Positions 1 to 4,277 of a stretch of DNA of 4,277 nt are shown here, piece by piece. Numbering within the stretch: the first letter of the stretch is position 1; each line of letters opens with the position of its first letter. The DNA comes from a virus (taxonomy: Duplodnaviria > Heunggongvirae > Uroviricota > Caudoviricetes). The stretch is from positions 1-4,277 of IMG/VR virus record IMGVR_UViG_2585427792_000010; one strand, given 5' to 3'. The translations under genes and the position numbers were made by a program. The notes under the pieces were generated by a model. That model ran no database searches. It was not told the origin of the DNA and worked only from the letters and a program-made list of their open reading frames with translations.

Positions 1-25
1 ACCTCGGTTTACAGGAAACGGTAAA
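1..25. repeat. Left inverted repeat / crossover site of the invertible segment, truncated by the window edge
   Basis: Positions 1-25 (acctcggtttacaggaaacggtaaa) are the exact reverse complement of 3055-3079; the first mismatch is at position 26. Position 1-17 corresponds to the inner half-site plus centre of the 26-bp site at 3063-3088. Confidence 0.7.
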
Positions 26-962
26 TCAGGCTTCTGGCGCATTACAGAAAAACCAGAACGGCGCAGATATTCCGGGAAAAGATACCTTCACCAAAAATAT
101 TGGGGCCTGCCGCGCATATAGCGCATGGCTGAATATTGGTGGCGATAGTCAGGTCTGGACAACCGCGCAATTTATTTCGTGGCTGGAGAGTCAGGGAGCA
201 TTTAACCATCCTTACTGGATGTGCAAAGGCTCATGGACTTATGCAAATAATAAGGTCATTACAGATACAGGTTGCGGAAATATTTGTCTTGCAGGTGCTG
301 TGGTGGAAGTTATTGGCACTCGCGGCGCAATGACCATACGCGTTACCACGCCGAGCACGTCCAGCGGTGGCGGAATTACTAACGCTCAATTCACTTATAT
401 TAATCATGGTGATGCTTATGCTCCTGGCTGGCGACGAGACTACAACACGAAAAATCAACAACCTGCATTTGCTTTAGGGCAAACAGGAAGCACTGTCGGA
501 AATGATAAAGCTGTTGGCTGGAACTGGAATAGCGGGGTCTATAACGCAAACATTGGTGGCGCATCGACATTAATCCTCCACTTCAATATGAATACGGGGA
601 GCTGCCCTGCTGTACAGTTCCGCGTGAATTACAGGAACGGCGGTATTTTTTATCGTTCAGCGCGTGATGGTTATGGATTTGAGGCTGACTGGTCAGAGTT
701 TTACACCACGACCCGCAAACCCTCTGCGAGAGATGTTGGTGCATACACGCAGGCAGAATGTAACTCAAGGTTTATTACAGGTATTCGCCTTGGCGGTCTG
801 TCATCTGTTCAGACATGGAATGGCCCCGGCTGGTCTGACAGGTCAGGTTATGTCGTTACGGGTTCAGTTAACGGAAACCGTGATGAATTAATTGATACAA
901 CTCAGGCAAGGCCAATTCAGTATTGCATTAATGGGACGTGGTATAACGCGGGGAGTATTTAA
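3..962 (+). CDS. Start-less alternative tail-fibre C-terminal (receptor-binding) cassette (S'v / Hv'-like); silent in this orientation, expressed only after inversion fuses it to the constant part of the fibre gene
   Basis: My own translation shows the frame of track ORF 219..962 is open from position 3 with no stop. It begins LGLQETVN, identical to residues 391-398 of the minus-strand fibre. It ends ...RPIQYCINGTWYNAGSI, resembling the fibre C-terminus ...RPIQKYINGTWYNVAQV. No convincing SD precedes the Met at 219. Confidence 0.8.
   Translation, partial: LGLQETVNQASGALQKNQNGADIPGKDTFTKNIGACRAYSAWLNIGGDSQVWTTAQFISWLESQGAFNHPYWMCKGSWTYANNKVITDTGCGNICLAGAVVEVIGTRGAMTIRVTTPSTSSGGGITNAQFTYINHGDAYAPGWRRDYNTKNQQPAFALGQTGSTVGNDKAVGWNWNSGVYNANIGGASTLILHFNMNTGSCPAVQFRVNYRNGGIFYRSARDGYGFEADWSEFYTTTRKPSARDVGAYTQAECNSRFITGIRLGGLSSVQTWNGPGWSDRSGYVVTGSVNGNRDELIDTTQARPIQYCINGTWYNAGSI
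950..955 (+). promoter_or_regulatory. Shine-Dalgarno-like GGGGAG for the plus-strand chaperone gene, embedded in the last codons of the alternative fibre cassette
   Basis: GGGGAG at 950-955, 9 nt upstream of the ATG at 965 (12 nt from the ATG at 968). Confidence 0.4.
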
Positions 963-964
963 CG

Positions 965-1498
965 ATGATGCACTTAAAAAACATTACTGCTGGCAACCCT
1001 AAAACAAAAGAGCAATACCAGCTAACAAAGCAATTTAACATCAAATGGCTTTATTCAGATGATGGAAAAAACTGGTATGAGGAACAAAAGAATTTCCAGC
1101 CAGACACTTTGAAAATGGTCTATGACCATAACGGCGTTATTATTTGTATTGAAAAGGATGTTTCAGCAATTAATCCAGAAGGCGCAAGCGTCGTTGAATT
1201 ACCTGATATTACAGCAAATCGCCGGGCTGATATTTCGGGTAAATGGATGTTCAAAGATGGCGTAGTGATAAAGCGAACTTATACCGAGGAAGAACAGAGG
1301 CAGCAGGCAGAGAATGAAAAACAAAGCCTGTTGCAACTTGTCAGGGATAAAACCCAGCTATGGGACTCACAGCTACGGCTGGGCATCATTTCCGACGAGA
1401 ATAAACAAAAATTAACAGAGTGGATGCTCTTTGCGCAGAAAGTCGAATCGACAGACACTTCCAGCCTGCCAGTAACGTTTCCCGAACAACCAGAATGA
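965..1498 (+). CDS. Alternative tail fibre assembly chaperone (U'/Tfa'-like paralog), partner of the silent alternative fibre tip
   Basis: 177-aa [27 protein letters not shown].... Roughly 70% identical by eye to the minus-strand chaperone over the first ~110 aa, then a divergent C-terminal ~60 aa. Starts 2 nt after the stop of the upstream cassette (960-962). GGGGAG at 950-955 is a plausible SD. The homologous start may be the second ATG at 968. Confidence 0.87.
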   Translation: MMHLKNITAGNPKTKEQYQLTKQFNIKWLYSDDGKNWYEEQKNFQPDTLKMVYDHNGVIICIEKDVSAINPEGASVVELPDITANRRADISGKWMFKDGVVIKRTYTEEEQRQQAENEKQSLLQLVRDKTQLWDSQLRLGIISDENKQKLTEWMLFAQKVESTDTSSLPVTFPEQPE

Positions 1499-1501
1499 GA
1501 G

Positions 1502-1529
1502 AAGGCCCGCAATCGGGCCTTAATTTTTA
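1502..1529. terminator. Putative intrinsic terminator hairpin between the convergent chaperone genes
   Basis: Perfect 8-bp GC-rich stem (aaggcccg 1502-1509 and cgggcctt 1514-1521) with a 4-nt loop (caat), followed on the plus strand by aattttta. It lies in the 28-bp gap between the stops of the two convergent genes (1498 and 1527). The U-tract is weaker for the minus-strand transcript. Confidence 0.5.
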
Positions 1530-2054
1530 CTCTGGTTTTTGTGGCCATTCAGGCTTTGCCGTATCCACACGGCTGACCAGAACGCTGTAGCGTTCCCATG
1601 ACTCCAGTCGTGCGCGCTCCTCATCCGTCGCCATATTCAGCCTGACAGCGCGTTCCAGCGGCTGGATGACTGATTCAGCTTCGGAAAGCAATGCGGCCTT
1701 TTGTGATTCGGCTTGTTGTTGCTGTTCGTCTGCCGTATAAATCCGTTTAACTACAGCTCCATCCTTAAACATCCACTTTCCTGAATCATCAGCGCGGCGA
1801 TTGGCTGTAATATCGGGAACCTCAACGACGCTAAAACCTTCAGGGTTAAGCGTGGATGCATCTTTGGTGATGGCGACAATAATATTATTTTCATCGTAAA
1901 CAATCTTTATTGTATCTGGTTGAAAGTTTTTCACTTCCTCATACCAGTTTTTACCGTCTTCGGACCATAACCAGATAACATCAAAATTCTTTGTTAGCTG
2001 ATATTGTTCTTTCGTTTTAGGATTACCAGACTTAATATTTTTTAAATGCTGCAT
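1527..2054 (-). CDS. G: Tail fibre assembly chaperone (P2 gpG / Mu U / lambda Tfa family), partner of the currently expressed fibre tip
   Basis: 175-aa ORF starting [24 protein letters not shown]..., which I recall as matching P2 G. ATG at 2054-2052 lies 3 nt after the fibre stop (2058-2060). An AGGTG Shine-Dalgarno (2061-2065, minus strand) sits 6 nt upstream of the ATG, inside the 3' end of the fibre gene. Stop TAA at 1527-1529. Confidence 0.88.
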
Positions 2055-2057
2055 AAT

Positions 2058-4277
2058 TTACACCTGTGCTACGTTATACCATGTGCCATTGATGTATTTT
2101 TGTATTGGTCTGAAGATGGCTTCATCATCGCCATCTACTTCACCAATGATTCTTAATCCGGTAATTGCGTGTCCGGCTTTTTCATAACGACCACCACGCG
2201 CCATCAATTGAACAACACGTGTGCCAAGTCGGACATCTCTCACATAGCGTGAGTCAAAATTGCCATAATTTCCGGGAATAATTTGCGCACCGCAAAGCCA
2301 GTTGCCATTGTTGTCCATGTACGCCTGACCATCGGTGCCATTGGCTGTCCTTGAATTATTAATCATGTAAAAACCAAACTGGTAGTTACCAAGTCCACCG
2401 ACAAAAAATTTGCGTTCTGCATGGTCTTGTCTTAACAAAGCCTGCGCAGAACTTGTTGATACTGCGTTTCTACCAAAAATGACATTCTGGTTTCGCATAT
2501 CAATCCATGAGGTTGAGCCACTATTAATAGCAAACCTGTTTGCATACACCCAGGCGTTAGTTGTTATATCTCCTGTAACATCCAGACCATGCCCCATAGT
2601 TATGCGGCCAGTTCTGAGATTAAGCGTAAAGGGACGTAGTGGCCCTATATCACCATTTTCCCCCTCATTCTCTCGTGTAGGGATGATATGCAGGCATTCT
2701 TCAGAACGGCGAAAAATGGCACCAAAAGATGAATTAAATATCCTCAGTGCATTGACTGTCGATATTTTTACTTCACTGCTGAAAAGGGCTTTAACAAGAA
2801 CAGACAAAGCACCCCATTTAAGATTCATCAGGTCTTTTGTTGTGGTGCTTTGTTTGCTTCTCCATTTGAAATATTCATTGCCGTTGTCGCCTGTTTCAAA
2901 CCACATGTATGAATCAGTGTCGCTGTCGGCATCATTTTTAAATCCAATCTTTGCCCAGTCAGTATTTCGAATCCAGGCAAGGATTGAGTCGTTTTCAAAA
3001 GTAAGCCCACCGGATAAGGTATCGCCTGTCTTTTGAACGGCGTTACCAGCCCTGTTTACCGTTTCCTGTAAACCGAGGTATTCGATAACGGCGGCAACGG
3101 TCGATTTCGCAAGAATATCCCGCCCGACTTTTGTCAGGGTTGCCAGGCTGGCGACATCATTCCCCGTAAAATACGGAAACCTGTCTGCCGCAGTAGCAAG
3201 CCCGGCCAGCGCCGTCAGGGTGGCATCTTTCGGTTGCTTACCCGCAAGCGCGTTAGTCATGGTGGTCGCAAAATTCGGGTCGTTGCCCAGCGCCGCCGCT
3301 AACTCGTTCAGCGTATTCAGTGCGTCAGGCGACGAGTCTACAAGGGCGGCAATCGCGGCCATCACATAAGCCGTACTTGCGATCTGAGTATTATTAGTAC
3401 CTTTTGGCGCAGTTGGCGTTGTTGGCGTTCCGGTCAGTGCAGGACTATTTAAGGGCGCTTTCTTGTTCGTTTCATCCATTACCGCCTTAACCGCTTTCGA
3501 TGTCGCGGCCAGTGTTTCAGACGTGCTGTTGGTGGCACTACTGAGCTGGACTATCCCTTTTTGTGCCGTCGTGGCGTCCTGAGCGGTATATTTTGCGTTA
3601 GCAAGGTCATACGCGGCCTTTACTGCTTTCGGCGTTGCAGCCTGCGTTTCAGACGTGCTGTTGGTGGCGCTACTGAGCTGGACAAGGCCTTTTCGCGTCG
3701 TGCTGGCATCCTGCGCAGTATATTTACCGTTAGCAAGATCATACGCGGCCTTTACTGCTTTCGGCGTTGCAGCCTGCGTTTCAGACACGCTGTTAGTGGC
3801 GCTACTGAGTTGAACAAAGCCTTTTGCGGTCAGCGAGGCGTCCGGGTGACGTCGTGACTGTTCATGCTCTTTCAGTTTGTCATCCACGTAATCCACTGTG
3901 GCCATCACCATGGTGTTATCCACGGTAAGCGCCACGGTGGCAGTGCTGGATACGGTCAGAATGGTGCGAAATGTTTGTGCACGACCGGACCCTTCGGCAA
4001 CGGCTGGCTTGTAACTTTCGGCAGTATTTCCCACCGCGATTAAATCGCCGTGCTCATCAAATACACCAATTTCCCGGATCCAGAATCCGCCCGTTTCAGG
4101 AGGAATAACCAGCTCCGCAATAATGCGGTTCTGATGTGTTGCGTCCAGGATGACGCGATTAACAGTATGTCGCCACACCTCATGCACCAGACGGGTCTGC
4201 TTACTGTTTGGTGTGGGCAACGTGCCGCCACCGTCGCCCACGGCCATATGAGTCAGGCGGACAGGCTTACCATCTGG
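2058..4277 (-). CDS. H: Phage tail fibre protein, P2 gpH-like; 5' end runs off the window. Constant N-terminal shaft about 3077-4277, currently joined variable receptor-binding C-terminus 2058-3076
   Basis: 729-aa ORF on the track (2058..4247). My translation of 4248-4277 in the same frame (PDGKPVRLTH) has no stop, so the Met at 4247 is internal. From memory, the N-terminal region (MAVGDGGG..., IAELVIPPE..GGFW, ESYKPA.AEGSGR) and the C-terminal end (GNFDSRYV.DVRLGTRVVQLMARGGRYEKAGH.ITGLRIIGEVDGDDEAIFRPIQKYINGTWYNVAQV) match P2 tail fibre H. Contains 44-aa tandem repeats with the QLSSATNSTSET.AATPKAVK motif typical of phage fibres. Stop TAA at 2058-2060. Confidence 0.9.
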   Translation of the reverse strand, partial: PDGKPVRLTHMAVGDGGGTLPTPNSKQTRLVHEVWRHTVNRVILDATHQNRIIAELVIPPETGGFWIREIGVFDEHGDLIAVGNTAESYKPAVAEGSGRAQTFRTILTVSSTATVALTVDNTMVMATVDYVDDKLKEHEQSRRHPDASLTAKGFVQLSSATNSVSETQAATPKAVKAAYDLANGKYTAQDASTTRKGLVQLSSATNSTSETQAATPKAVKAAYDLANAKYTAQDATTAQKGIVQLSSATNSTSETLAATSKAVKAVMDETNKKAPLNSPALTGTPTTPTAPKGTNNTQIASTAYVMAAIAALVDSSPDALNTLNELAAALGNDPNFATTMTNALAGKQPKDATLTALAGLATAADRFPYFTGNDVASLATLTKVGRDILAKSTVAAVIEYLGLQETVNRAGNAVQKTGDTLSGGLTFENDSILAWIRNTDWAKIGFKNDADSDTDSYMWFETGDNGNEYFKWRSKQSTTTKDLMNLKWGALSVLVKALFSSEVKISTVNALRIFNSSFGAIFRRSEECLHIIPTRENEGENGDIGPLRPFTLNLRTGRITMGHGLDVTGDITTNAWVYANRFAINSGSTSWIDMRNQNVIFGRNAVSTSSAQALLRQDHAERKFFVGGLGNYQFGFYMINNSRTANGTDGQAYMDNNGNWLCGAQIIPGNYGNFDSRYVRDVRLGTRVVQLMARGGRYEKAGHAITGLRIIGEVDGDDEAIFRPIQKYINGTWYNVAQV
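2061..2065 (-). promoter_or_regulatory. Shine-Dalgarno (AGGTG) for the minus-strand chaperone gene, embedded in the last codons of the fibre gene (translational coupling)
   Basis: The minus-strand sequence upstream of the ATG at 2054 reads agcacAGGTGtaaattATG, giving a 6-nt spacer. Confidence 0.5.
3055..3079. repeat. Right inverted repeat, inside the fibre coding sequence at the constant/variable junction
   Basis: Exact 25-bp reverse-complement match to window positions 1-25. Encodes LGLQETVN of the fibre protein. Confidence 0.7.
3063..3088. other. Candidate 26-bp serine-invertase crossover site (gix/cix/pix/hix-like): TTCCTGTAAACC-GA-GGTATTCGATAA
   Basis: Imperfect palindrome of two 12-bp half-sites (TTCCTGTAAACC, and TTATCGAATACC on the other strand) around a central GA dinucleotide. 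The left half and centre are the part duplicated at the window start. From memory it closely resembles the Mu gix site; this was not verified by alignment. Confidence 0.6.
3477..3845 (-). repeat. In-frame tandem repeat, 132-bp period (44 aa), about 2.7 copies, in the constant shaft of the fibre gene
   Basis: The motif gtttcagacgtgctgttggtggc recurs at 3514, 3646 and 3778 (with variants), a spacing of exactly 132 bp. The protein shows KGFVQLSSATNSVSETQAATPKAVKAAYDLANGKYTAQDASTTR, then KGLVQLSSATNSTSETQAATPKAVKAAYDLANAKYTAQDATTAQ, then KGIVQLSSATNSTSETLAATSKAVKAV.... Confidence 0.85.

Follow-up and report, generated by a model that had tools for sequence, protein, structure and literature searches.

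Positions 5-3075 of this viral sequence almost certainly form an invertible segment of the Mu G-segment or P1/P7 C-segment type, carried by a P2-like (P88-like) prophage. The whole stretch analysed here, referred to as the window, comprises 4,277 nt (positions 1-4,277 of IMG/VR record IMGVR_UViG_2585427792_000010), and its left end holds Sv', a tail-fibre tip that is expressed only after inversion, when it is fused to the constant part of the fibre (Table 1). The element exemplifies a type of programmed DNA rearrangement that is among the oldest known, and its sequence is near-identical to the Mu and P7 prototypes. It carries the features of the Din family: inverted, matching 26-bp sites, an adjacent serine recombinase with Ser9 and a helix-turn-helix (HTH) domain, a crossover within an ORF, convergent tip-chaperone sets, and both orientations, the latter seen in relatives.

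Table 1. Features of the window, with amino-acid identity to Mu and P7 counterparts where compared
Feature	Position (nt)	Strand	Evidence and remarks	Identity to counterpart (aa)
Left inverted-repeat arm, exact part	1-25		Inner half-site 6-17; central dinucleotide TC 4-5	
Sv' cassette, silent start-less alternative C-terminal (receptor-binding) tip	3-962	+	319 codons plus stop	Mu S', 98.7% (315/319, no gaps); C-terminus of P7 S, 95%
Mis-started gene model, internal Met, 247 aa	219-962	+	ORF list; CDS in P88; five public contigs	
U', tail-fibre assembly chaperone paired with Sv'	965-1498	+	Pfam Caudo_TAP, 4.8e-36; silent in this orientation	Mu U', 97.2%
GC-rich hairpin between U' and U	1502-1521		Terminator-like, T-run on + strand; consensus scan only	
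U, chaperone for the currently expressed tip	1527-2054	-	Pfam Caudo_TAP, 3e-37	Mu U, 96.6%
Sv, currently expressed variable tip	2058-3077	-	In frame with constant part; P7 Sv', Mu S, PDB 5YVQ	P7 Sv', 96.8%; Mu S, 66%
Right arm and complete right 26-bp gix-type site	3055-3088		Exact arm 3055-3079; site 3063-3088	
Sc, constant fibre part	3078-4277	-	Pfam Phage_tail_fib and Phage_fiber_2; runs off the window	

The segment is bounded by inverted repeats that are read in frame on both sides. The 25 nt at positions 1-25 are the exact reverse complement of 3055-3079, and the match extends imperfectly to 49 nt at 78% identity; by our own arithmetic, about 1e-8 exact inverted matches of 25 nt would be expected by chance in 4.3 kb. 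Each arm overlaps a 26-bp gix-type site. The outer half of the left site lies beyond the window edge, and the full site, TTATCTAAAACC-TC-GGTTTACAGGAA, is present at 5774-5799 of a public contig (L005) that is 100% identical over the overlap; it differs by 1 nt from the Mu site, TTATCCAAAACC-TC-GGTTTACAGGAA. The right site, TTCCTGTAAACC-GA-GGTATTCGATAA, is centred on 3075-3076 within the fibre coding sequence and differs from Mu at 4 nt. The central dinucleotides of the two sites are identical (TC/GA).

Translation of the third forward frame revealed, as the preliminary description had stated, a reading frame open from base 3; it ends at a TAA at 960-962, and the other two forward frames contain 2 and 3 stops within 1-218. 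A profile search matched the product to Pfam gp37_C. Its first eight codons, supplied by the repeat, read LGLQETVN, the same eight residues as in the minus-strand fibre. The ORF finder listed a single piece of this cassette, the 247-aa ORF beginning at ATG219. The proposal that the true N-terminal boundary is the crossover point and not this ATG is borne out by the Mu tail-fibre structure PDB 8JU3 ('Tail fiber protein S, Tail fiber protein S''; E 1.7e-219), in which residues 170-488 align to cassette residues 1-319; since the alignment of chain 8JU3_A starts at residue 170, the experimentally studied protein is a fusion starting at the crossover. The full-length collinear identity that begins at this same point marks the cassette as the orthologue of Mu S'. 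The active tip Sv in turn matches PDB 5YVQ (Mu S; E 1.4e-139).

ATG219 likewise lacks a visible ribosome-binding site, as had been noted: the sole GGAG-like motif in the preceding 30 nt (AGTCAGGGAGCATTTAACCATCCTTACTGG) lies about 20 nt upstream, too distant for a Shine-Dalgarno sequence. In contrast, the ATG of U' at 965, 2 nt past the Sv' stop, is preceded at 9 nt by GGGGAG. Codons 1-72 of the cassette, upstream of ATG219, show few differences from Mu, P7 and four prophages, mostly synonymous and at third positions (synonymous to nonsynonymous 4:1, 1:0, 3:1, 2:0 and 4:0; Mu 4:1, Escherichia coli C2 4:0, E. coli E110019 3:1). Small as these numbers are, the pattern is compatible with translation of the whole frame.

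Reverse-complementing 5-3075, or cutting at any point inside the identical arms, joined the fibre N-terminus to the cassette in a single ORF with no stop and no frameshift, the outcome that the preliminary description had predicted. Counted from Met4247, the fusion comprises 709 aa, namely residues 1-398 followed by 311 cassette residues; from the window edge it is stop-free over 719 aa. The predicted Sc-Sv' junction reads ...GTTATCGAATACCTCGGTTTACAGGAAACGGTAAATCAGG..., and fusion peptides would span ...VIEYLGLQETVNQASG...; the predicted junction peptide is YLGLQETVNQASGALQK, as against the N-terminal peptide MCKGSWTYANNK (MCKGSW...) for a start at ATG219.

The residue numbers given earlier require correction. 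The minus-strand fibre ORF listed within the window has 729 codons (2058-4247), and its frame is still open at the right edge (PDGKPVRLTHM...); the homologues in P88 and E. coli relatives have 35 additional codons at the 5' end, beyond the window (MSTTTRKFKTVITD...), so that all numbers counted from Met4247 are 35 too low. The shared residues, described as fibre residues 391-398, are indeed identical and are properly 426-433; the active fibre has 764 aa. The forecast fusion of residues 1-398 with about 312 further residues was right in being clean, and it has a tip of 311 residues and a full length of 744 aa rather than about 710. Such a fusion also exists in nature: the 2130-nt in-silico fusion gene aligns as a single block to individual genes annotated 'tail fiber protein', with nucleotide identity of up to 98.8%, and E. 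coli PEC399 carries an annotated 744-aa fibre that is 99.0% identical to the predicted product.

The left 3.08 kb of the window is collinear, at 90-96% nucleotide identity, with the annotated invertible segments of Mu, D108, SfMu, P1 and P7. Over its full length, the window matches the P2-like Xuanwuvirus Escherichia phage P88 at 96.3% identity. In the Mu record, the annotated 'G-segment boundary' falls 1 nt away from the centre of the left repeat, and the matching 958 nt are labelled 'carboxyl terminal end of tail fiber protein (S') in G(-) phage; N-terminus encoded by Mu_49'; with 315 of 319 residues identical to this protein, the earlier reading of the cassette as a start-less C-terminal module is upheld. 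In the P7 record, cixL/cixR, the crossover sites, Sv, Sv', U and U' are annotated in a corresponding arrangement. The preliminary description had called the cassette an alternative exon-like module, which is supported; what it lacked was the long-known identity of the segment with Mu G and P1 C.

The Mu G segment shares with the window element its gene order (S, U, U', S'), its orientation and a crossover inside the fibre ORF at LGLQETVN. The constant part of Mu, however, is a 169-aa Sc, whereas here it is of the P2 gpH type with 433 aa before the crossover; the Mu repeats are quoted as 34 bp (PMC4406740) against 25 nt exact here, and Mu is a transposable phage whereas the window derives from a P2-like prophage. 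The P1/P7 C segment (Cin, cix) follows the same switch logic, but the P7 segment measures 4.0 kb, its cassettes extend further in the upstream direction (P7 Sv' has 1345 nt, its counterpart here about 1020 nt) and its counterpart of U' is split into Ua and Ub. P88 (Peduoviridae, Xuanwuvirus) carries the same element type, with an identical invertase, an identical left site and the same P2-type neighbours, and diverges from the window by about 4% at the nucleotide level. The e14 Pin/P-segment and other Din-family fibre segments of prophages, among them lambdoid ones with Stf-type fibres and P2-like prophages of EPEC, likewise combine an invertase with inverted repeats that fuse alternative C-termini to one fibre gene; they differ in their N-terminal fibre parts and backbones, and some have three repeats and more than two tips (PMC4272514).

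The invertase itself is encoded outside the window, and was identified in two contigs, L004 and L005, that are 100% identical to the window over positions 1-3399 and 1-3594, respectively. About 55 nt left of the left site, both contain a divergently oriented gene for a 195-aa protein with PF00239 (Resolvase) and PF02796 (HTH_7) domains. This protein starts VLIGYVRVS (Ser9), is identical to that of P88, and shares 86% of its residues with Gin and 74% with Cin. Over its first 120 nt, the gene matches gin at 118 positions, in the region that contains the enhancer in cin and gin; the P7 record annotates the enhancer in the same part of cin. The other contig neighbours are P2-type tail genes encoding gpU, tape measure, gpE, tube and sheath. 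Both contigs belong to the five public contigs that encode exactly the 247-aa product. The exact window sequence was matched only in draft contigs (GCA_013073845.1 and GCA_053881915.1), and the best complete E. coli genome reaches 94.9% identity.

Natural copies occur in both orientations. A near-identical prophage is present in E. coli 2020N21-110 and in 2020N21-110-15, a strain derived from it; the invertase, the two chaperones, tape measure and gpI share accession numbers between the two assemblies, and the segment lies in opposite orientations. On either side, 2.9 and 5.2 kb of flanking sequence agree at 100%; the ~3.1-kb segment in between runs in reverse, with 100% identity in its interior, and the 8 mismatches of this block all fall in the outer half-sites, which stay with the flanks. 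The exchange is thereby located within the gix-type site, between the outer half and the end of the identical arm, a position that is consistent with the central dinucleotide. In this relative, the fusion gene is 97.8% identical to that of the window at the nucleotide level, and the right site is slightly less perfect than the window's (GAT instead of GGT). The segment is also found in opposite orientations in PEC399 as compared with P88 and E110019; in PEC399 the Sv tip that has been displaced is annotated as a pseudogene 'missing N-terminus' and stands next to a full-length recombinase.

A lambdoid prophage of E. coli C2 has the same cassettes attached to another type of fibre N-terminus; Sv' occupies the expressed position there, and identity across the junction is 99%. 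The presence of these cassettes on a lambdoid fibre makes the set a mobile module across phage families, and the distal shaft together with the invertible cassette set appears, from these comparisons, to be swapped as a unit among P2-like, Mu-like, P1-like and lambdoid phages. In addition, 400 nt of the constant part upstream of the crossover (window 3080-3475) are 99% identical to a lambdoid Stf-type fibre gene of 945 aa, found in E. coli C2 (L009 4501-4900) and many other genomes.

In the proposed mechanism, late transcription would enter from the right, on the minus strand, through Sc. In the sequenced orientation, Sc would run in frame into Sv and then into the chaperone gene U, with Sv' and U' antisense to the fibre transcript on the opposite strand; lacking a start codon context or promoter of their own, these two would be silent. 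The Gin-family serine invertase encoded just left of the window would recombine the two inverted 26-bp sites at their central 2 bp (4-5 and 3075-3076). Because the crossover site lies inside the fibre coding sequence, inversion would swap everything after codon 433 (398 in window numbering), and the inverted product would be Sc-Sv' (744 aa), with the coupled U' behind it. The cassette that happens to face the constant part would thus be translated as the C-terminus, along with its chaperone, and a phage population would possess two fibre tips and two host ranges.

This copy is probably active, and transcription presumably originates only outside the segment, with no internal promoter. Weakly in line with the latter, a promoter scan of the window detected no excess of sigma-70-like sites (4 against 5.9 expected from shuffles). 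A terminator scan remained at or below shuffle expectation, and an Rfam scan of the window returned nothing. The mechanism itself is textbook knowledge, the G and C segments having been known to switch host range since 1980. In Mu, Gin-driven inversion of G selects S/U or S'/U' and hence host range (PMC4406740; PMC3575834), the change on inversion being credited to van de Putte et al. 1980 as cited in PMC4406740; Mu G(+) infects E. coli K-12. Inversion has been detected by sequencing in Mu and in P2-like prophages of E. coli (PMC4272514). The hosts and receptors of the two tips here may be extrapolated from Mu, in the case of Sv' by way of its 98.7% identity to Mu S', bearing in mind that the constant part is P2-like and not Mu-like.

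Could the 247-aa ORF be a real, independent gene, such as a stand-alone fibre or receptor-binding protein? It has an ATG, ends at a proper stop, is a CDS in P88 and is called on five public contigs. We nevertheless rejected ATG219 as the true start and consider an independent gene very improbable. No Shine-Dalgarno sequence stands at a usable spacing and promoter-like sites are not in excess; the conserved frame continues without a stop through another 72 codons as far as the crossover, a stretch in which the other frames have stops, and these codons vary mainly synonymously, albeit in small numbers. Annotators are themselves inconsistent, with PGAP taking a different internal start (219 aa) in relatives, which indicates that the choice of start is arbitrary. 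A free product of 27 kDa would be without the baseplate-attachment part, and the solved Mu S' protein is a fusion from the crossover. The tips might also be mere paralogues that have undergone no recombination, with the repeat and the eight shared codons a coincidence. Their common C-terminal motif (RPIQ..INGTWYN) does speak for some common descent, but the 25-nt exact repeat lies in an otherwise diverged N-terminal cassette region, coincides with the gix consensus common to Mu, P88 and several prophages, and is exactly where natural recombinants break. A chance repeat was rejected on these grounds and chance similarity is excluded; we assign this explanation as a whole a negligible probability.

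Somewhat less remote, though still improbable, is a segment frozen as a relic that no longer flips, with the cassette a decaying pseudogene. Decay of this kind does occur, as the E. coli C2 lambdoid prophage retains a recombinase remnant of only 64 aa beside the same cassettes; SfMu may not invert owing to a 1-bp change in a repeat (PMC4406740); and the invertase lies outside the window. Here, however, Sv' (319 codons) and U' (177 codons) are intact, as are both 26-bp sites with their matching centres, and the contigs that are 100% identical to the window encode, adjacent to it, a full-length Ser9 invertase, the same as that of the inducible phage P88. Moreover, a prophage with a less perfect right site has flipped within one strain lineage. 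These features count against a frozen relic.

The silent cassette has been recorded in the ways that the preliminary description foresaw, as a truncated 247-aa protein or a pseudogene. In the GenBank record of P88, 219-962 appears as a 'tail fiber protein' of 247 aa, and the same product is encoded on the five contigs; PGAP calls a 219-aa version in E110019 and 2020N21-110, and flags the silent tip as a pseudogene 'missing N-terminus' where the segment has the other orientation (E. coli C2 and PEC399). A systematic annotation error is thereby documented, in which start-less cassettes are called truncated 'tail fiber protein' genes or pseudogenes. The published P88 host-range study, which located determinants in the C-terminus of the expressed fibre, never mentions inversion. 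On balance, we favour the view that P88-type phages, including the one used in host-range engineering, carry a functional G segment overlooked by records and paper alike, that their lysates should also hold virions of another type, whose host range resembles that of Mu G(-) (E. coli C, Enterobacter, Serratia and others), and that the silent cassette is wrongly called a free gene or a pseudogene in hundreds of E. coli prophage records. P88-like phages should accordingly have two host ranges, and the host range of such a phage or prophage is not readable from the single fibre gene listed in its record. This bears on host-range prediction and on phage engineering with P2-like backbones, with modest practical value; the angle is only mildly new and concerns annotation and applied use rather than mechanism.

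The two tips are unrelated except for the crossover motif and a conserved C-terminal region of ~65 residues ending INGTWYN. At the nucleotide level, their 3' ends share a stretch at 909-948 and 2072-2111 (RPIQYCINGTWYNAGSI and RPIQKYINGTWYNVAQV), which appears as an inverted repeat of 40 nt (78%) immediately before each chaperone gene; this shared stretch may be the part contacted by the U and U' chaperones. U' (177 codons) and U are convergent, both belong to Caudo_TAP and are 58% identical to each other, with their N-terminal halves the more similar parts. The 28-nt gap between their stops (1499-1526) contains an 8-bp hairpin, AAGGCCCG-CAAT-CGGGCCTT, followed by a T-run on the + strand, and this hairpin could terminate whichever cassette pair is transcribed.

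The constant part Sc consists of a P2 gpH-like collar domain and three 44-aa fibre repeats. The latter are encoded by three tandem 132-nt units at 3484-3879, 75-83% identical, with the Phage_fiber_2 pattern ...GxVQLSSATNSxSET.AATPKAVKAAYDLA...; these units are a likely substrate for variation in repeat number. Several E. coli relatives, with fibres of 764-771 aa, align in two to three pieces at the tandem repeats. In the closest complete genome, E. coli E110019 (94.9%; L010 3558-5851), the expressed fibre gene is annotated as frameshifted, and this prophage copy may be decaying though its invertase and silent cassette look intact.

Two contigs end or diverge at positions worth recording. The identity of L004 (WERE01000041.1) to the window stops at window 3399, from about 9182 of the contig, where a fibre gene called at 342 aa adjoins tail-completion genes of the P2 gpS/gpR type where the remainder of the fibre and the baseplate genes would be expected; the break reflects either a prophage deletion or rearrangement or an assembly join. 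A Logan contig of 3084 nt from SRR36349674 (L006) covers window -4 to 3079 and thus ends exactly at the right repeat end. Although the exact 25-nt repeat is shorter than the k-mer size of the Logan assembly (31), the right end of the contig would fit a branch from both junctions, hinting at both orientations in the sample. Its left end at -4 fits such a branch poorly and other prophage copies could give the same breaks, so that this contig counts as no more than a hint of mixed orientation.
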